Source of the DNA: Eledone cirrhosa
Lineage: Eukaryota
Reading direction: 5' to 3'
Assembly (NCBI GenBank): GCA_964016885.1
Contig: OZ024743.1
Span: 29,202,001-29,266,000 of the forward strand
DNA length: 64,000 nucleotides
The notes beneath the pieces are model-generated. The model was not told where the DNA came from and ran no database searches. It worked only from the letters and a program-made list of their open reading frames with translations. Positions 15,520 to 60,715 of the stretch are shown piece by piece. How positions within the stretch are numbered: position 1 is the stretch's first letter; each line of letters begins with the position of its first letter. The position numbers and the translations under genes were made by a program.

Positions 15520-18500
15520 TCATATAATAAAAGTCTGGAAGAGTTCTTTGGGCCAGTGGACTCTTCGGCCGGAACGGGTCGTGGTCTTGTATCTTAGTGA
15601 TGGGGGGGGGGGGGGGGGGGGCAAAGAAACTGGTGTGTCTGTAAAAGCGAAAGATGCGGGTGTATGTGGCTCAGGTGTGTGAGCATCTGTATGGGCCCGT
15701 TTAAGTCTATCAACCGCAATGGTCTTTCTGGATCCCTTAATGTCTACAGTGAAATGTTTATCAGAACGAGTTAATACACGGTAGGGTCCAGAGTCCGGTT
15801 GTGTGAGCGGTGGTCTCACAGCATCGTTTCTTACGAACACATGGGTCCACGAGGCAATATCCCTCGGGACTGCAGATTTTACAGTTTGTTTCCTCGTATC
15901 CATCAGCGGCAGGTCCTGAAAATAAGAACGCAGACGGGATACGTAGGAAAGCGGATCTTGTGCAGCAAGATCGACAGGGGCAAGCATTTGCCCAGGTAAC
16001 GCTAGAGAAGCACCATACAATAATTCGGCCGGGGAGAACCCAAGGCCCTCCTTTATTGATGACCGAATCCCCAACAACACAATAGGGAGGTACTCGCTCC
16101 AACGCGTAGAGTCAGGAGAAGTCCGTAGGTCGGCTTTTAGTTGACGGTGGAAGCGCTCCACCATTCCATTAGATGCAGGATGATATGCAGTCGTTCGGAT
16201 GCGTTTAGCGCCAATGATCTTCGTCAATTCGGAGAGAGATTCGATTCAAACTGTCTTCCACGGTCCGTTGTAATCGTGGTTGGCACTCCAAAGCGGGCAA
16301 TCCATCCTGATACTAGGGTACGCGCTGTCGTTTCAGCAGTGATGTCTTTCAAGGGGATGGCTTCAGGCCATCGCGAAAAACGATCAATAACAGTCAATAG
16401 ATAAGTATGACCACCTCTGACTGGACAAGGTCCCACGATGTCCACATGAATGTGCTGGAAACGGGCTTCCGGTGTACTGAAAGTACCGAGCGGAGACTTT
16501 ATGGATATTCGATTTCTGGCAAGCGATGCAGGAACGGCACCAAGCAGTAATATCGCGCCTCATATTTGGCCAGAAGAATCTGGCTGTTATGAGCTTTACT
16601 GTGGCAGAAGATCCTGGGTGTGAAATGCTGTGTAAAGCAAGAAACACAGTACGATGGTGGTTTAGCGGGACGAATGGTCTCGGTGAATCCACGGAAACGT
16701 CGCAGAGAATCTGTCCGTCTGCGGTGGGCAATGGTAGGTATTTCAAATTACTCGTCGCAAATTCGCCTGATGTAATATCCAACAATTCCAGTGCAGGTTG
16801 GTCTGCTGCCAAGTGATTTAAATCGATGTCGTGGGATGACACAATCGAACTGATCGGCAATCGAGACAGGGCGTCAGCCGCTGTGTTCAATGAGCCTGGA
16901 ATGTGTTGGATGTCGTTTGTGAATTGCGAGATAAAGTCGAGATGCCTTGTTTCTCTGGGCGAGTACTTGTCGGATTTTGCCCTTAAAGCGAAGGTCAAAG
17001 GTTTATGGTCAGTATAGATTGTAAAACACCTTCCTTCGAGAATATGTGAAAAATGTTTCACGGAAAGGTAGATGGCTAACAGCTCCCGGCCAAAGGTGCT
17101 GTAACGAGTTTCTGCAGGCTTCAACTTCCTGGAGAAAAATTCCAATGGGTGTTGGTGATCGTCACCACTCTGTTGTAAGACTGCACCCACTGCAGTATCC
17201 GACGCACCAACACAAAGCGAAAGCTTGGCATTGGACACTGGGTGGGCCAGCAAAGATGCACTAGCCAATGCTGATTTGGCTTTTTGAAAATCCTCGAGCT
17301 GAGTCTGAGTCAAAAAGATTTCCTTGTTCTTCTTGCGGCAATTTTTCAGAATCTCAGTAAGAGAGAAGAGTAGATTAGCACAATGCGGAACAAAACGTCT
17401 ATAAAAATTTATCAGTCCTAGGAATTGTCGCAACTGACGAAGTAAGGTCGGCGGAGGCAAATCCTCTATAGCCTGAACTCGTTGAGGGAGGGGTCGAATA
17501 CCCTCGCAGTCAATGACATGACCTAAAAAATTCAGTGATTCCGCACCGAAAACACATATTGTGGGATTTATTTGAACACTGTAATCCTTGAGTTGACAAA
17601 ACAAAAGATTCAAATGACGTATGTGTTCTTCTCTGGAGGAACTAGCAATAAGTAAATCATCAATATAAGTGTAGACGAAGTCTAAACCACGAGTGACCTC
17701 ATCCATGAACCGTTGAAAGGTGCTAGCAGCATTCCTAAGTTCGAAAGGCATGGTAAGAAATTCGAATGATCCAGATGGAGTCGTAATGGCCGTTTTCGGA
17801 ATATCTTATTTCTTGACAGGTATTTGATGATAGGCTCGCACCAAATCGAGCTTCGAGAACATTTTACATCCCTGCAACGATGATGCAAAATCTTGCAGGT
17901 GTGGGATAGGGTATCTATCCGGGACAGTTATAGCATTTAACTTCCTATAATCACCAGTGGGTCTCCAGTCGCCAGAAGTCTTGGGTACCATGTGCAACCG
18001 AGAAGGCCAAGGGCTCGTAGAAGGGCGAATTATGCCAAGCTGCAGCATGTGGTCGAACTCGGACCGTGCTGCCTTCAATTTGTCCGCAGGCAAGCGACGA
18101 GGACGTGAGAACACTGGGGCGCCAGTTGTAGAGATAAACTGCTCCGTTGTCTGAGTCGGTTCGACAACACGAAAATTTCCCTGAGTAAGCTGCGGGAAAG
18201 AATTCAACAATGTATGATAGGTATTCCCAGCATTAGCGATGAAAAAGGTCGGGCTGACTGTTGGAAAATTAGCTTTCTGGCCACGAAGAGAAAAACCAGT
18301 AATGCCGTCTACTAGGCGCCGGCCACGGACGGCTACCGTCAATGCAAAATGGTGTAGAAAATCCGCTCCCAAGATCGGATATGGTAGGTCAGCAACCGTA
18401 AAAATCCATTTGAATTCTTGTCGAAGATTTCTGAATTGCAGAGGAAGCCAGATTTGTCCAAAAGTCCGTATCGGCGAATGATTGACAGCTTGTAGATACA

Positions 18501-18615
18501 TTGCTGACTCAAGAGGAGTTTCTTTAACTCAGTTCAACGGCCAAATGCTGCAGGAGGCCCCCGTATCTACGAGGAAAGATCTTCCGGACAGGAAATCCTG
18601 AATAAAGAAGTGGCG
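15520..18615 (-). pseudogene. pol: Gypsy pol (protease, RT, RNase H, integrase), broken into ORFs 17806-18501, 16384-17751, 16224-16445, 15520-16227
   Basis: Protease FLVDTGAS followed by an in-frame [24 protein letters not shown]. RNase H TDHKPL, ADALSR. Integrase [31 protein letters not shown]. Confidence 0.95.
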
Positions 18616-18637
18616 GTTTGGGTGTGTAGCACAGAGA

Positions 18638-19444
18638 TCAGCTGCCGCCTAGAGTGACTCTGGTCTGCGTTTCCCGAAGTTGAATAGTTACACGGTGGCC
18701 GGCAGTGTTTTGCTTTATCAGCGAAGGTGGCATGATACCAGCAAAAAGACGAATTGCTGCGGGAAAGCTGGCGTTACGGCGTGAAGTCGCGAAGGAACAC
18801 GAACGACTTCTTAGCCGCCTGGGAGATGGCCTACTCTCCCTACATAATTTAGCGACTTGACGCGTCAATGCACCAATCGCCTTCAACATGGCATACTCGA
18901 GTGTCGAGACGGGTTGGTTCGGAAAAGTCGAAGAGGCAACAAGCGAGTCCAACGAGGTAGCTTTCCTAGAGAATTCCACAATTCGATCAGCAGACGCAGC
19001 GATCTGCTCCACCGAGCTCGAGTCCACTATGGTAGCCAATATAATCTGTACATTGTTTGGCAAGCGAGAACAAAATAGCTTTTTGATAAATGAACTATCC
19101 TCATCGGGCGATTCACTGAGGTCCCGAATGTGGCGTAAAAATTCGGACGGCGACCTGTCGCCTAAACACTCGTCCTCCAATAATACACGAAACCTGCTTT
19201 CAGCAGAACGGCATTTTCTCCTTAATATTTCCGTCCTCAACGAATCATACGAAGTACCGGATGGCGGATCCGTTATTAAATCTTTCACCGTGATGGCGAG
19301 CGACGAAGGTATACCACTAATCCAAACATTGAGTTTCTGCTCTGTTTTAATTCCATTTGCAGCAAAATATGCATCCAGTTGCGCAAACCAGAGCTTGGGA
19401 TCACCGGAGAACGCAGGTAAATTAGGACTACTCATTATTAGCAT
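18638..19444 (-). pseudogene. gag: Gypsy gag (frameshifted near its C-terminus)
   Basis: LPAF..DPKLWFAQ and LGDRSPSEFLR motifs. CWYHATFADKAKHCRPPC knuckle lies in a shifted frame at ~18690-18745. Confidence 0.9.
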
Positions 19445-19802
19445 GTATCAGTTCCACATAAAAAATACTAATTCAAGGTAGAAAAATTAAATGTTTTTTT
19501 CTCTTTTTTTTTTTAATTGGAGAAGGAGATGGCATCACATGATGCGTCTCAGCCAATCAGATGGCTGCATTTCGGAGAAGAAAGACAATTGGCGGGAAAA
19601 TTGGTGGACCAGTGAGCCATTGTGAATTTTTTTTTTTGTGTTAAACGAACAATTTTCAATTTCGTTATTTTCGCATAGTTGCAAGAAATAAAATATTAGT
19701 TTGGTTAATTTTTTTTCTATGTTTCTCTAGAAGTGTTTAGAAGTCTTTTAGAAGTTTTTCGAATTTTTTTTTAGAAGTTTTTTTTAGAAGGCTGTGTAAT
19801 GC

Positions 19803-30315: not shown

Positions 30316-30475
30316 GGCTCAGAAAAATCTCTTTCATTGAGCTATTTAATCGTAAGAGACTATTTTGAGTTTCTATCTCAATAAATACCTTTGATATATA
30401 TATATATATATATTAGTTTTGCGAGGTTTTTTATATGAAATCGTGTGTCGAAACAGATATTGTATTTTATATATA

Positions 30476-31603
30476 ACACCCCCACTAGAGAGCACTAACA
30501 AGTTTGATTTAGAACGTAGCACGATGGAAAGCATCCAGCAGATAGCTAATTCCATACACCAGAGTATAACTGTAACTATAGACTTCCCTTCCAAACACCC
30601 TAACAATAGACTACCTGTATTAGACACAGAACTCTGGATTAACACTATAGACGAGAGAGCCCAAATTCTCCACTCACACTATGCTAAACCCATGGCCTCC
30701 AAATACCTGATACTCAAAAACTCAGCAATGTCCAGTAGTGCTAAGTTTAATATTCTGATCGCAGATTTGGTACGAGTGATGAAGAATGTGTCCAGCATGT
30801 GCGACCCAACAGAAATGGAAGGACACATCCAACACTTCATCAACCGCATGCAGTTCTCTGGCTACAACCAAAGAGACAGAGTCAGAGTATACGAAGGAGC
30901 CATGGAAAAGTATAAGACCCTCATAGAACTGGACATGAAAGGAATTTGCCCACTATACAGGAGCAAATCATGGAATAGCTTAGATAGGGCTAGACATAAG
31001 ATAGGGAAGGCCACATCATGGTACGACAACCAGAGATATCAGAGTGTCATGTTTGTGGACGCCACCCCTGGAGGGAAATTAGCTAACCAGTGTAGAAAGG
31101 CCCTGAGAAAGACCCACTTAAAAATAAAGGTGGTAGAAAAGCCAGGAACCACCATAAAATCCCTGATCAGCAAAACCTACCCTTTTAAGAAAACCCACTG
31201 TACTAATAGGAAATGTATCATATGTAAGGTGAACCCCCGGATAAACTGTAAAACTAGAAACGTAGTCTATAGCATAAGATGTACAGAGGGTACTTGCAGA
31301 AACATGACAACAACATACATAGGTGAGACAGCTCGTAGCATAGGTGAAAGGATAGACCAACACTGGGGGGAACTAAAAGGACGAAAAAACGGGTCAGTAC
31401 TATACGAACATGCTAGACAACAACATGACAGTAACATAGACAACATAGAAATTAGAATAATATCTAAACATAGGAATGACCCAGCAGATAGGCAAATCAG
31501 AGAGGCCAGTGAAATAGAAATTAGAAGACCAAAGCTAAATAGAAAGAATGAGTGGAACAACAACAACACCCAAACAAACAACACTGACCTAAGAGAAGTA
31601 TAA
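30476..31603 (+). CDS. PLE RT C-terminus/thumb + Cys-rich linker + GIY-YIG endonuclease (5'-truncated open frame)
   Basis: LPVLDTELW..HYAKP; C-x4-C-x2-C-x7-C linker; NVVYSIRC..YIGETAR..ER..QH..EH..R.IREA..I..PKLN. The first ~19 codons of the listed ORF come from the inverted tail. Confidence 0.88.
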   Translation, partial: TPPLESTNKFDLERSTMESIQQIANSIHQSITVTIDFPSKHPNNRLPVLDTELWINTIDERAQILHSHYAKPMASKYLILKNSAMSSSAKFNILIADLVRVMKNVSSMCDPTEMEGHIQHFINRMQFSGYNQRDRVRVYEGAMEKYKTLIELDMKGICPLYRSKSWNSLDRARHKIGKATSWYDNQRYQSVMFVDATPGGKLANQCRKALRKTHLKIKVVEKPGTTIKSLISKTYPFKKTHCTNRKCIICKVNPRINCKTRNVVYSIRCTEGTCRNMTTTYIGETARSIGERIDQHWGELKGRKNGSVLYEHARQQHDSNIDNIEIRIISKHRNDPADRQIREASEIEIRRPKLNRKNEWNNNNTQTNNTDLREV

Positions 31604-41088: not shown

Positions 41089-42268
41089 CTATCCGTTAGG
41101 GTATAACGTGGGGCTGTAATACAGGAAAGTTTTGTGCAATTTATGTTTACAAGCCGAAATTGCCTCAGATTTTTTGTTTAAGATGCGGTCTTTGGCGTAG
41201 AGTATTTCCAAGGCCTCAGCAGCGCAGAGATCACATGGTCTTTTATTTCCGTTATACGATCTAGCCTTAGCTAGAATCTCCCAGTGTAACTTATATTGGG
41301 TCTGGCTGTCTTTTAGACTCCAGATATAAGCTGAAAGTGACGTCATCTTCCTTTTTAAAGGGTTAAGAAAAGAATGGGTATGCATGTAAAGACGCTGCTT
41401 GAATCTACAGGGCGTGGGTGTTTCAACCTTACATTTGTCGACAATGTTACTAGAGAGGCATTTCTCGGATAGGGGGCAGTCAACCCGATTCCTACAATTA
41501 CAGTTAGTACTAGCTACAGGGTTGCACGTGTCCCTACGGCTAGGTAGTTTAGCTAAATTTGAAGCTCTGAAGTTATGTGCAAGGTTAGGAATCGTATAGT
41601 AAGAAATTTTAATGGTATTTCTATTAAAAATTTTACTATATTTATGTGCTGAGAGGGAGGGGAATGCTTCATAATAAGGGAGAGAAATATCTTAGCTAAT
41701 GGTGTGGCCACCTCCAAATAATATGGTGGGTTATACCATATAATGCGTCGGGATCTATTTTTCTAGTTCTATTCTCGTACTCTGTATATGCTACCTTATC
41801 GACAAATCCACTCCGAACATGAGCTTCATTGTAATATGTGGAATGGTAGTTGAAAATATGCTCGTTAGTAGATAGACGGGAAAGCCTCAAAGAATAATTT
41901 CTTACCAGATTCTTGGTTATGATGGCAGGATGGTTAGAATGCTTACTTATGTAATTAAGCGTATCATTCTGCTTTCTATACAGGTAGTGCAAGCCATTCG
42001 ACAAATTGAGGGTAACGTCGAGGTAATAAACGACCGAAAGGTTTGCCTAAACCTGTATGGAGAGGTTGAAGGCTTTAAAGAAGGCTGTGAGTTCTTTTCT
42101 GAACCTGTCACAAGCACGTGGACCGCACTTTGTCATGGTCAAAAGACCATCATCACGGTACAAACCACCGCCCACGTTGGGGAATTCTTCCTTGATAGAG
42201 AAAAGAAGGAAAAGGCCGATAAGATCAGTGACCTCCGCAGAATAGCTGGCGCCCATACTCACGTCCAA
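41089..42268 (-). pseudogene. Naiad-like PLE RT/GIY-YIG coding remnant
   Basis: ORF pieces 42047-42268, 41696-42004 and 41089-41385, joined by frameshifts/stops. YIG motif is missing. Confidence 0.85.
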
Positions 42269-43134: not shown

Positions 43135-45710
43135 TAAAAAATATAAGTCAACAGCACATAAACGACAAGTGCTAAATAGATTGTTTGCCAGAGATCCTAA
43201 ATCAGTTTATCGCAGCTTAGGTGGCAAAAGCTCAATCCCTGTAAACGACACCCCTTCAAAAGAACAGGTTGAGAGCTACAAGCTAATTGGCTAAAAGAAC
43301 TGGAACAGGACTACTGCCAACATGTCCAGACAAAACAATATGACATAGATGGGTCAATACTGGAAACAGCTCTACAGAAAATGTCGAATAGGAAATCGCC
43401 AGGCCCAGACCTCATTACAGGATACTGGTTGAAGAATTTCACTTTCTATCGTCAAGATCTCATACGGCTGTTTACAGAAACCATTAAGGGCACACAAGAA
43501 CTGCCCAGATGGTTATCAACTGCCACTACTCTCCTCATTCCCCAAAATAGCCAAACCACCCTTGCTAAAAATTACCGCCCAATTGCCTGCCAAAACATCA
43601 TGTATAAATTATATACTGGGTGCCTTACCCTGTTCTTACAGGATCACTGTGCTACCAACAACATCATAACACCTGAGCAAGCTGGTGGAAAGAGGGAGGT
43701 CTGGGGTTGCATAGATCACCTACTAACTAACAAAATGATTCAAGAAAAAACAACAAAGAATCGCAGAAACATGACTGTCGTGTGGCTGGACTATCAAAAA
43801 GCATTTGATAGTGTACCTCATGGGTGGATTATTAAGGCTTTACAGTTAGCTAAAGTCCCACAACCATTGGTAGCTGCTGTTGAACGCCTGACCAAGAACT
43901 GGTACACCAATTTGATCCTTAGAGGTGAGAAGGAGCAGGTTAAGACTGATAAGATACATTACCAGAAGGGCATCTTTCAGAGTGATAGCTTGTCAGTACT
44001 ACTCTTCGTTCTCTCACTGAATCCACTATCTTACCTACTCAGGAAACAAGGTGGACAAAGAAGTGGGCCCTGAAGTATCTCCCATCTTTTCTTTGTTGAT
44101 GACCTGAAGTTGTATGGGCCAAATATCAATGACATCAAGAAACAATTGGACCTCATTACACAATTTTCAACCGACATCAAAATGAAATTTGGTGAGTCCA
44201 AGTGTGCATATTTGGCAGTAAAACGTGGAAGAGCTGTGCCCTCCTCTAGAAATCTAGAGATGAACGGCCTGACAATACAACCTCTGCAGTCAGGTGACAA
44301 CTATAGATATCTTGGACAGGATGAGAATGTCAGATATGATGGACCCATAAATAAGGAGAGAACCAGAACTGAATACCTCAGAAGAGTAAAGAAAATATGG
44401 TCATCAGAACTGTCAGCATACAACAAATACATTGCCCACAATACCTATGCTGTGCCAATTCTAACGCTAACATTTGGCCTACTGAACTGGTCATTGCAAG
44501 AACTAAGTGAGATGGATGTTAGAACTCGAAAACTTCTCAGTGTTACTGGGAACTTTAACATCAATGGTGATGTGGATAGGCTATACTTCTCACGCAAGGA
44601 AGGTGGCCGGGGTCTAAAATCAATATTAACAACATATGAGACCCGGATAGTAACACTGAAGCAACACCTTCAACAGAGGAAAAAGGTTGGCAACCATCTT
44701 GCTCAGGTTTATGAGCATGAAAAAAGAAATATCATTAGAATAGCGACTGATCCGGAGGAGAGATATGGAATAAAGCCTGATATAAATCTCTCACCCAGAG
44801 AAATCGGAAGATCCTATTCAATGTTCAAACAAGAAAAAAAAAATTGACCAATTTACAGAGAAAGTTGTGCATGGATACTTGAGGCGTAAAACACAGACCA
44901 TAGAGGGGATAAACCAATCAAAAAGCCTGGCATGGAGTTCCGACAAGTTTATGACATCACACCTTGAGGGATATCTCTATGCAATACAGGAACAAGAACT
45001 CCCTACCAAATATCTGCTGCACAAAAGAGGAGGGCCAGCAGCTGACAATAAATGTAGGCTATGTAAAACAAAGATCGAGGATGTAAGCCACATTGTTGCC
45101 AGCTGCGAAAGAATGTCATCTCGCTACTACCTCCCATGAGACACGATGGGATAGCTAGAACCATCTGGAACGCACTTCGGAAAACAAAATTAACAACAAA
45201 CGAGGATGAATATATTGAGACAGATGGCACTAAGGAATACTGGTGGAACCTGAAAATAAAAACTGCCACCAAATTAAAGCACAACCGGCCTGATATTATA
45301 GTTTGGGACCACACATTGAAAACGTGTTCTGTTGTGGAGATCAGCTGCCCACTTGATGTAAACGTTGTCAGAAAAATACAGGAGAAGGAGGACATCTACG
45401 GACCATTGATGAGGAGTTTACAAATCCAGTATCCAAGATACACCTCTAGCTTCATACCCATCATTATTGGTGCTACGGGTTATATACCAACCCGCTTGGA
45501 CCAAAGTATGACCGAACTTGGATTTGCGGACAAAAAGCGCAGCTCCCTAATTCATAGTCTACAAATGGTTGCGATAGCTGGCACCTTCAAAATTTGCAAA
45601 ACATTCTTGCGATTCAAGGGATGACAATTTCTTTTCTTTTACAACCTTGCCACCAGGAAGGTGGCCGGTCAAAAAATATACTCGAAATTAAGAGAAAGAG
45701 AAAACATATA
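43135..45710 (+). mobile_element. Non-LTR retrotransposon with C-terminal restriction-like endonuclease (R4/Dong clade), 5'-truncated, in TA-rich microsatellite
   Basis: RT and RLE motifs. Both ends abut (TA)/(TACA)-type repeats. Confidence 0.92.
43140..45624 (+). pseudogene. R4/Dong-type RT + CCHC + RLE ORF, frameshifted
   Basis: KSPGPD..GYWLK, NYRPIAC, DYQKAFDSVPH, GIFQSDSLS, HLFFVDDLKLY, RLYFSRKEGGRGL, CRLC..H..C, RHD, NRPDII..VEISCP. Split into ORFs 43381-44073, 44110-44847, 44867-45139, 45136-45624. Confidence 0.93.
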
Positions 45711-45726
45711 TACATACATATATACA

Positions 45727-46812
45727 TGGCGGCTGCCAACTCGTTTTTCGAGTACGGCCACTACTTTATATCCATGTAGGAGAACTCCTACCGATGTGCT
45801 GAACGAGTGTGACTCTTTAGTCCAGCCAGCGACTTGAAAACTCTGGTACAAACACTACACTTGTGACAATTATTGACACAGTGCTGGGCCCATGGTACCA
45901 TGTGACGACAAGTGCAGAGAGAGCTCCAGATATAAAGCAATGCCTGTGCCGTGAAGCTTTTATAGTGAGCAAAGGCACTGCACAAAGCCAGTCCCACTCT
46001 CTTAACCAAGATAATATTTACCAAACAGAAGAACAAGTCAACATCATTGGATACCATCAGAGTTGCAGGTGTTATATCAGAGTTTTCCTTCTCCTAGAAT
46101 TCTGCCTTGACAAAGGCTAAGGGGTCATCTCCCGGTATGTATATATATATATATGGTGGCTGCCAACTCGTCTTCGAGTACGGCCACTACTTTATATCCA
46201 TGTAGGAGAACCCCTACCGATACGCTGAACGAGTGTGACTTTTTAGTCCAGCCAGCGACTTGAAAACTCTGGTACAAACACTACACTTGTGACAATTATT
46301 GACACAGTGCTGGGCCCATGGTACCATGTGACGACAAGTGCAGAGAGATCTCCAGATATAAAGCAATGCTTGTGCCGTGAAGCTTTTATAGTGAGCAAAG
46401 GCACTGCACAAAGCCAGTCCCACTCTCTTAACCAAGATGATATTTACCAAAAAGAAGAACAAGTCAACATCATTGGATACCATCAGGGTTGCAGGTGTTA
46501 TATCAGAGTTTTCCTTCTCCTAGAATTCTGCCTTGACAAAGGCTAAGGGGTCATCTCTCCCGGTGATTTTGGATGGCCATTGATTCTTAAGAGCTCCTTT
46601 GCTCTTTGACAGGTTTTGTTTTTAGTCCTGCAGGATCTCCAAAGTCACCCTCCTCACCAAGAAACCTTGGTGGGGTTGCCAGTTTAGTCACCAACGACCC
46701 GACCATGAGACAGGTTGCACTGGGATACATGTTACCAGTAGCACCAACTGGTGACCTGACATTCACCTTAGCGGATCCTCAGTTCGTAATTACCAGCTGA
46801 GGATCCGCTAAG
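45727..46812 (-). mobile_element. RTE-derived non-autonomous (5'UTR + 3' end) element with partial tandem duplication
   Basis: Units ~45727-46135 and ~46153-46562 are near-identical (period ~426 bp). GGAGAAGGAAAACTCTGA RTE-like 5'UTR motif is joined directly to a C-terminal C2H2 finger CSVCTRVFKSLAGLKSHTRSAH. Confidence 0.72.
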
Positions 46813-59390: not shown

Positions 59391-59733
59391 CCACTACTGC
59401 TGCTGCTACCTTTTGACTACATGACTTCCCTCTTTATAAAGAAGAGTTTATTCTCCAGTCTCCTTCTCAGCAAGAAAGATGAAAAAAAACAAAAACTTAA
59501 ATCTTAATTTTAAATCTTTATACACAACATTTTCTTTGGAATACACAACATTCGATAAGATGAATGTTAATAATACATCGAAACAGGTAATACTTTATAT
59601 ACATTGTCAAACTCTGTTTTAAAAGAATTGCCCCTCTCATCTTTTCAATAATGTCACTTTGACGGGAAGAAAAAAAGAAAAAGAGACCCTAAGATATATT
59701 CTCCGTGCTATTTCCAATTTCACCTTCTCTCTC

Positions 59734-59828
<95 letters not shown>

Positions 59829-59964
59829 TGTAGAAGGTGAGTTATATAATATTGTAAAACAATAAAACTATGCATATATCAGAAAAGTAGCACTCAACAG
59901 TTGGTAGAACTGGAGTATATATAATAAAGAAGAAATTAAAAGATGGTTAAAAGAGTTCCATATG

Positions 59965-60032
59965 TTTTATTATGCGCATTTCGAATACAAAATCATCCTG
60001 GGACAAAAATTGTGTTCTCATCAGATAAAATA
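59965..60032 (-). ncRNA. Minimal type-I hammerhead ribozyme (intact core, minus strand)
   Basis: Reverse complement of 60109-60178 with CTGATGA and GAAATGCGCATA intact. Confidence 0.9.
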
Positions 60033-60108
60033 AGGTAACATGATATGAGGCATGATATGAGGCACTTGTTTACAGGAAAGTGCTATTATGCCTCATATCA
60101 TGTTACCT

Positions 60109-60178
60109 TATTTTATCTGATGAGAACACAATTTTTGTCCAAGGATGATTTTGTATTCGAAATGCGCATAATAAAATA
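60109..60178 (+). ncRNA. Minimal type-I hammerhead ribozyme
   Basis: TATTTTAT-CTGATGA-GAACACAA..TTGTATTC-GAA-ATGCGCAT (palindrome)-A-ATAAAATA. 8-bp stem I, AUA triplet. Confidence 0.92.
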
Positions 60179-60211
60179 TATGGAACTCTTTTAATCATCT
60201 TTTAATTTCTT

Positions 60212-60715
<504 letters not shown>

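Follow-up and report, generated by a model that had tools for sequence, protein, structure and literature searches.

A hairpin with hammerhead motifs on both strands in the genome of Eledone cirrhosa is very probably a by-product of a Penelope-like retrotransposon

Opposite-strand hammerhead pairs and inverted copies of the end repeat (pLTR) are already published for Penelope-like elements (PLEs), and a number of described systems come close to the locus reported here. They are summarized below from the accessible text of the sources cited. (i) The Hydra clade is defined by a DKT motif, a CxCX5C linker, the lack of the CCHH cysteine pair, insertion into (TA)n, and a hammerhead (Craig et al. 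2021, 10.1101/2021.04.23.441226). Its elements are generally shorter than 3 kb with a tail of 30 to 40 nt, and inverted 5'-truncated copies and one-sided tails are given as standard for PLEs (10.1101/2021.04.23.441226). (ii) The Penelopes of Adineta vaga form inverted pLTRs with palindromes at the junctions, which have been interpreted as the outcome of self-priming with an antisense template (Arkhipova et al. 2013, PMC3846280). (iii) PLE hammerheads occur as opposite-strand pairs 100 to 700 bp apart with low activity in vitro, and a circular template has been proposed (Cervera and de la Pena 2014, PMC4209133). (iv) In vitro, the PAc protein of the Anolis element Poseidon cuts a nick into each strand of the target and extends both of them (Frangieh et al. 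2024, PMC11167929); the tail is bounded by the two internal sites from which reverse transcription sets out, and RNA left uncut by its hammerhead serves as the template (PMC11167929). (v) Non-LTR retrozymes form head-to-tail tandems of a fixed unit (10.64898/2026.07.22.740005). (vi) In the fly Penelope element, an internal promoter and a start site were mapped inside the pLTR region (PMC2377424). The formation of tandem and inverted PLE ends is called undefined in the accessible text of 10.1101/2021.04.23.441226, PMC3846280, and PMC11167929.

We analyzed a stretch of 64,000 nucleotides of E. cirrhosa (contig OZ024743.1, positions 29,202,001 to 29,266,000), referred to as the window, and all unprefixed coordinates are window positions. 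It contains a hairpin of 294 bp with a computed fold energy of -226 kcal/mol, consisting of two arms of 134 bp (59924-60057 and 60084-60217) and a loop of 26 nt between them. The arms differ at four pairs of positions, three of which are G.T on the plus strand (59946/60195, 59964/60177, and 60054/60087) and one of which is G/A (60000/60141). An 87-nt tail is present on the left side only, and (TA)n flanks the hairpin on both sides. The initial annotation had described a near-perfect hairpin of about 294 bp with 134-bp arms and four mismatches, three of them G.U compatible, set with a one-sided tail in (TA)n; the arm coordinates and all four mismatches were reproduced, the tail was placed at 59829-59915, and both flanks proved to be (TA)n. 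The individual features are as follows.

59738..59827, no strand: (TA)n target microsatellite, left flank
59829..59915, minus strand: PLE tail, which in longer copies runs on into the 5' UTR and the ORF; its outer end at 59829 would be the distal fixed end and one reverse transcription start site
59916..59923, minus strand: TATATA stretch at the border of pLTR and tail, the position where tailless arms end; putative second reverse transcription start site
59924..60057, minus strand: left, tailed arm, the 3' part of the pLTR, with the element sense on the minus strand
59963..60032, minus strand: motif of the type-I hammerhead, expected to be cut between 59971 and 59970
60039..60064, plus strand: 12-bp tandem duplication, absent from 27 other aligned copies
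60058..60083, minus strand: central loop, the native short stem-loop of the pLTR, continuous with the tailed arm
60078..60085, no strand: 8-nt microhomology that the arms have in common, corresponding to half of the native stem; putative point where two cDNAs joined
60084..60217, plus strand: right, tailless arm, the 3' part of the pLTR ending in the TATATA site, with the element sense on the plus strand
60109..60178, plus strand: motif of the type-I hammerhead, its stem III palindromic, expected to be cut between 60170 and 60171
60215..60711, no strand: (TA)n-rich right flank

The assignment of a start site to the outer tail end borrows the definition of the tail by two starts from the accessible text of PMC11167929. 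Two further observations concern the left side of the locus: the antisense of the tail carries a donor-like motif, AG/GTGAGT (59833-59841, plus strand), which is conserved in the copies and in a sister subfamily, and the sequence left of the (TA)n tract (59531-59716) is itself a multicopy repeat, as judged by read depth.

A descriptor of the type-I hammerhead matched exactly twice in the window, once per strand (cores at 60117 on the plus strand and at 60024 on the minus strand). The motif consists of CTGATGA, a stem II of 8 bp that contains one mismatch, GAAA, stem III ATGCGCAT, and AUA, followed by the predicted cut; core, stems, and cut are thus as described in the initial annotation, which had claimed a complete minimal type-I hammerhead on each strand. 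The presence on both strands follows from the palindrome, the second hammerhead being the mirror image of the first. No hammerhead family was found at an E value of ≤1 when the locus was searched with Rfam, which gave only subthreshold matches to miRNA hairpins. Like the minimal hammerheads of PLEs described in the accessible text of PMC4209133, the motif is of type I, has a helix II of 7 to 8 bp with G10.1-C11.1 and a palindromic helix III, and is predicted to act as a dimer; unlike them, it has a 6-nt palindromic insert in helix III, and an additional base is absent between its positions 9 and 10.1. The monomeric fold was unfavorable in silico (+1.1 kcal/mol). When two copies were cofolded, the dimeric hammerhead was the minimum-energy structure (-25.9, compared to -7.7 per monomer). 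Within the full hairpin, the computed pairing probability of stem II was about 1e-35, which supports in silico the earlier proposal that the ribozyme would be masked in a hairpin transcript. As a caution, a genomic hairpin may carry a hammerhead on each strand without any viroid-like RNA being involved.

Other repeat families in the flanks of the copies were seen to carry the same hammerhead core with different stems (L024:898-938; L038, L049, L067, L081, L085, L102, and L106), including one head-to-head pair 40 bp apart, and several of these families have perfect stem III palindromes, although the descriptor imposed none. On contig C1 (225137683-225137744), the hammerhead 20-mer occurs three times at a spacing of 21 bp, forming a small tandem within one arm. 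Marks of RNA-level selection or of ADAR, considered as an explanation of the G.U-biased mismatches, were ruled out, since a strand bias was absent among 203 differences between the arms of sister insertions (G.U pairs made up 54 of them when read on the tail-first strand and another 46 on the opposite strand, and the remaining 103 were transversions). Such mismatches are what transitions give and are not a signal, and signs of transcription or of ADAR editing were not seen for this copy. Sequencing runs presumed to be RNA had small word shares, and the one that was compared gave no match, which is uninformative about transcription.

The sequence of the hairpin is the pLTR of an abundant Penelope-like retrotransposon, and the hairpin is very probably a by-product of this element. 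To retrieve copies independently of the hairpin, the genome was searched with the tail only (1,463 candidates, of which 40 were scored and all 40 were inspected). Ten of these 40 tail-anchored copies continue into DNA coding for a reverse transcriptase (RT) and a GIY-YIG nuclease; in L076 and L051, the tail runs into a 5' UTR and then into the ORF. The pLTR measures about 488 nt, carries the hammerhead, and ends in TATATA, and the tail comprises the following 82 nt. The single ORF linked to the repeat encodes an RT of the PLE type plus, at the C terminus, a GIY-YIG domain, as judged by YRDD and GIY-YIG-like motifs in linked copies. The protein of linked copies has (i) DKT in place of DKG (VHSDKTNNLY in L066 and L178), (ii) YRDD, (iii) an Asn-rich stretch between RT and nuclease, (iv) a CxCX5C linker (CNCPIRTNC in L063 and L065 and CNCRIKNKC in L178), and (v) a GIY-YIG-like domain in which the stretch from GIY to YIG has a single Cys, so that the cysteine pair of CCHH is absent. 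Hallmarks of PLEs are present across the copies, namely, the pLTR, partial tandems, an inverted 5'-truncated copy, and a one-sided tail, and TA or TG repeats flank nearly all copy rows.

By motifs alone, the family has the marks of the Hydra clade (DKT, CxCX5C, no CCHH pair, a (TA)n target, and the hammerhead), with which it also shares the order of RT and GIY-YIG and the location of the hammerhead in the pLTR. It differs from that clade in its tail of about 82 nt, compared to 30 to 40 nt, in the Asn-rich stretch, and in its unit of about 3.5 to 3.7 kb (the motif spacing is 3,686 in L178), which is above the <3 kb of Hydra. An assignment to Neptune or Nematis was a first guess that was replaced by Hydra on the basis of the motifs. 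Pfam matches were weak and below the cutoff (an E value of about 0.01 for GIY-YIG and of 0.004 for RVT_1 on a homologue); the Pfam search of the query protein gave no RT match, the homologue search returned 11 proteins, none of which was named, and the search against solved structures gave only a chance match. Exact counts in the genome were 1,004 for the ribozyme 20-mer and 3,890 for the downstream motif, the latter including the sister subfamily. This sister subfamily, C, contains an uninterrupted frame of 821 codons at locus L178. It appears young, with tandem and inverted full-length copies at L178 (the whole locus), L170, and L175, and makes up most of the exact motif matches on contig C1. 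It provides material from a clade that is uncharacterized in the accessible text of the PLE literature cited.

The arms of the family have fixed ends. Among 30 rows aligned at their 3' ends, which include both arms of some insertions and were found with a query that precluded earlier ends, 15 end at positions 481 to 488 and 15 at 568 to 570, with none between; these two fixed points are the two ends of the tail. For the 5' ends, 92 of the 100 motif places that head the list for contig C1 were inspected, corresponding to 91 distinct arms. Twenty-six of them end within -1 to +2 of one A, which precedes the hammerhead cut by about 122 nt, whereas 24 end downstream of it, 5 at +4 to +20, and none at +21 to +83, and 36 run beyond. 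In a second sample (103 arms from earlier loci), 17 arms end at positions 312 to 316 and 5 within the 50 nt upstream. The exact 5' ends were preceded in 8 of 17 cases by a G where the element has a C (P = 0.013 against a baseline of 20%), and in 10 of 19 cases when two ends read by eye were added (P = 0.002); the second sample had this G at only 1 of 7 exact ends. An extra G is the mark of a copied cap. Judged from these DNA ends, the fixed 5' point is likely the capped RNA start of the element. It lies in a CATATG palindrome, which may itself favor joints and enlarge the pile of ends. Both arms in the window stop short of this point, by about 10 and about 30 nt. Arms with a 5' end at the hammerhead cut were few, with 3 exact ends (L033, L044, and L078, in which the arm starts at the first base past the cut) and 7 within positions 433 to 439 among the 103 arms and none among the 91 arms of the C1 sample, and AT microhomology blurs any cleavage footprint at the cut site. 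At L079 (reverse strand, 1875-1949), the 3' end of a pLTR fragment lies at the cut site, directly before (TA)n, which could be due to priming from cleaved RNA or to AT microhomology.

We also compared the two arms of 48 insertions, which were left of 57 pairs after the removal of 4 doubtful pairs and of 5 with fewer than 40 shared sites. Arm divergence was 4.5% within insertions and 6.6% between insertions, and the arms agree at 132 of 140 sites that are diagnostic of subfamilies. Private variants mirrored on both arms were found at 14 sites in 10 of the 48 insertions, compared to about 0.8 expected by a hand estimate. By this comparison of sequences, both arms of an insertion derive from one source or template. 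Three insertions have a tail on both sides (L013:1501-1964, L028:1411-1866, and L085:1357-1705), and private deletions are mirrored on both arms of L013 and L028.

We consider it probable that the hairpin is a noncoding pLTR insertion that arose on site when two cDNAs, each primed separately, were joined head to head, and we favor twin priming as the specific route with somewhat less confidence. In the twin priming of L1, cDNA synthesis on a single RNA is primed by both strands of the target, and the 5' part becomes inverted and joined by microhomology. In the family studied here, unlike in L1, the primers would start at two fixed nearby sites, so that the cDNAs would overlap and form a palindrome. 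The following steps are proposed. (i) The element protein would nick both strands of the (TA)n tract. (ii) On one and the same RNA, reverse transcription would be primed twice, at the end of the tail by one nick and at the TATATA site, some 82 nt upstream, by the other. (iii) Both cDNAs would pass the uncut hammerhead toward the 5' end of the RNA, a start that is likely capped and precedes the cut by about 122 nt. (iv) The 3' ends of the cDNAs, as we infer, would anneal through a short stretch of self-complementary sequence, which in this copy is the 8-nt stem of the native stem-loop, and be joined head to head. (v) Fill-in would result in a palindrome with a tail on one side. By this model, the family would share with Poseidon PAc two RT starts that bound the tail, the nicking and extension of both strands, an AT-rich target, an AC-rich start site, and an uncut RNA; its motifs place it in a different clade, and the accessible text of PMC11167929 does not address head-to-head joining or the 5' end of the RNA. 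In addition, templates that are linear and uncut, rather than circular as in PMC4209133, are suggested by the ends observed here. A search of the open full-text literature for Penelope and twin priming returned no paper on the PLE mechanism, as judged by title or abstract; subscription papers and supplements, outside its scope, may hold such a model.

A number of observations weigh against twin priming: the mirrored private variants would also fit a self-primed fold-back or a later conversion between arms, loops can invert after insertion, tails on both sides as in L013 and L028 are the expected outcome of a full fold-back, a few arms do end at the site of the hammerhead cut, the G stands at only 1 of the 7 exact ends of the second sample, and the CATATG palindrome at the start site might promote joints by itself. 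The first of the alternatives, self-priming, is an unlikely one. One cDNA, or an antisense RNA template, would fold on a short palindrome and copy itself, and the asymmetry of the tail would arise when a nuclease trims one tail or when the loop inverts later. Such a process was proposed in print for Adineta vaga (accessible text of PMC3846280), whose Penelopes resemble the present family in their head-to-head pLTRs, palindromes at the joints, optional tail, AT-rich targets, and Asn-rich inserts. It would account for joints at short palindromes and at the native stem-loop, for the private mirrored variants, and for the two tails of L013 and L028. However, a cDNA primed at TATATA would have no tail to copy, yet copies that are short on the tail side are common (L046, L055, and L058), either arm being able to be the longer one. 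Furthermore, the inverted piece in L091 and L092 is tail sequence that does not overlap the long arm, a layout that neither a fold-back of tailless cDNA nor a later inversion between arms can give, and L112, L142, and L177 have filler between two arms that each end at the fixed 5' point. Unlike in the account for Adineta vaga, the ends here better fit two cDNAs templated by sense RNA. The initial annotation had offered an extremely truncated Penelope-like fold-back as one of two options. Its Penelope-like identity holds, given the copies linked to RT and GIY-YIG and the fit to published PLE hammerheads; the fold-back is probably the wrong route, because either arm may be longer, L091 and L092 have inverted tail outside the other arm, and the 5' stop is fixed.

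The other option was a discrete nonautonomous retrozyme- or viroid-like unit, in which a hairpin of about 390 bp would be transcribed, processed by its ribozymes, and reinserted whole; we regard this as very improbable. It appeared to be favored by a search of the 3.0-Gb genome of the same organism with the whole unit (2,612 candidates, 40 scored), in which 40 of 40 scored loci were near full length. These loci are the best 40 of 2,612 in a ranking that favors query-like hairpins, and the discrete family derived from them was dropped as the product of selection after tail-only, arm-only, and motif searches, which are blind to the junction and gave scattered joints. Among the 40 tail-anchored copies, 25 have an inverted second arm (L045 possibly representing two insertions), 15 have none within the flanking DNA retrieved, and the joints range from 111 nt past the tail start to deep within the ORF. 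An identical joint in five copies and the dimeric hammerhead obtained by cofolding would also fit a discrete unit. However, the exact fold at the stem-loop of this copy occurs 5 times, compared to 65 cases of straight read-through of the same stem-loop, and in a set of 28 similar hairpins the orientation of the loop was split 13 to 11, with both orientations in 3 further hairpins and neither in 1. Short hairpins were found in two subfamilies, and in a tree of 46 rows, in which 2 of 43 branches were strongly supported, the hairpin state changed 14 times, compared to 14.8 times after shuffling (214 of 500 shuffles were as low), which weakly suggests that they do not cluster. Unlike the metazoan non-LTR retrozymes, which are likewise noncoding, PLE related, and endowed with a type-I hammerhead (PMC7229834; accessible text of 10.64898/2026.07.22.740005), the arrangement is head to head with variable joints; no head-to-tail tandem of the hairpin unit was found, and the ribozymes would be masked in the hairpin. 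The hairpin is thus very probably not a discrete unit, since its junctions vary, its fold is rare relative to read-through, its loop lies two ways, and such hairpins do not cluster on a poorly resolved tree. Junctions that differ among copies, many of them linked to the full element, are also what the initial annotation had named beforehand as speaking against such a unit. An assembly or library artifact, that is, a chimeric palindrome, is extremely unlikely in spite of 0 reads or contigs spanning this exact locus, because the arms differ from each other by four substitutions and the 12-bp duplication, both hairpin ends fall on the fixed ends of the family, dozens of loci of the same build have different joints, and raw DNA reads of a run labeled as the same species hold family sequence including arm-to-arm joints.

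With the origin from two primed cDNAs as the preferred reading, this copy is predicted to be a dead passenger, because it is without the putative start, and its ribozymes would be masked if it were read through. On its own, the locus is no more than a dead stub of an ordinary kind, and a modest importance lies with the family. We see an even chance that its insertions record the copying cycle of PLEs, comprising two nicks, one capped linear RNA with an uncut hammerhead, cDNAs extended to the cap and often bearing an extra G, and a head-to-head join. If this is true, inverted pLTRs and one-sided tails would be explained without the published circular or antisense templates, and the transcription start of the element could be mapped from genome sequence alone. 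For the in vitro system that already exists, predictions follow directly from the fixed 3' ends, the sharp 5' boundary with its extra G, and the two-way loop.

The window contains a number of other elements. Two fragments of Penelope-like nuclease domains were observed, one at 41089-41691 (minus strand) with the same CxCX5C linker and another at 30395-31603 (plus strand) with a cysteine-bearing linker of another type. Judged by eye from translations, a Ty3/Gypsy-like gag-pol in several frames lies at 15520-19447 (minus strand) and a broken non-LTR reverse transcriptase at 43273-45624 (plus strand). Beside the latter, at 45714-46557, two tandem units of 426 bp that are 96% alike follow short TA tracts, and the start of the same 426-bp unit was also found beside L022.
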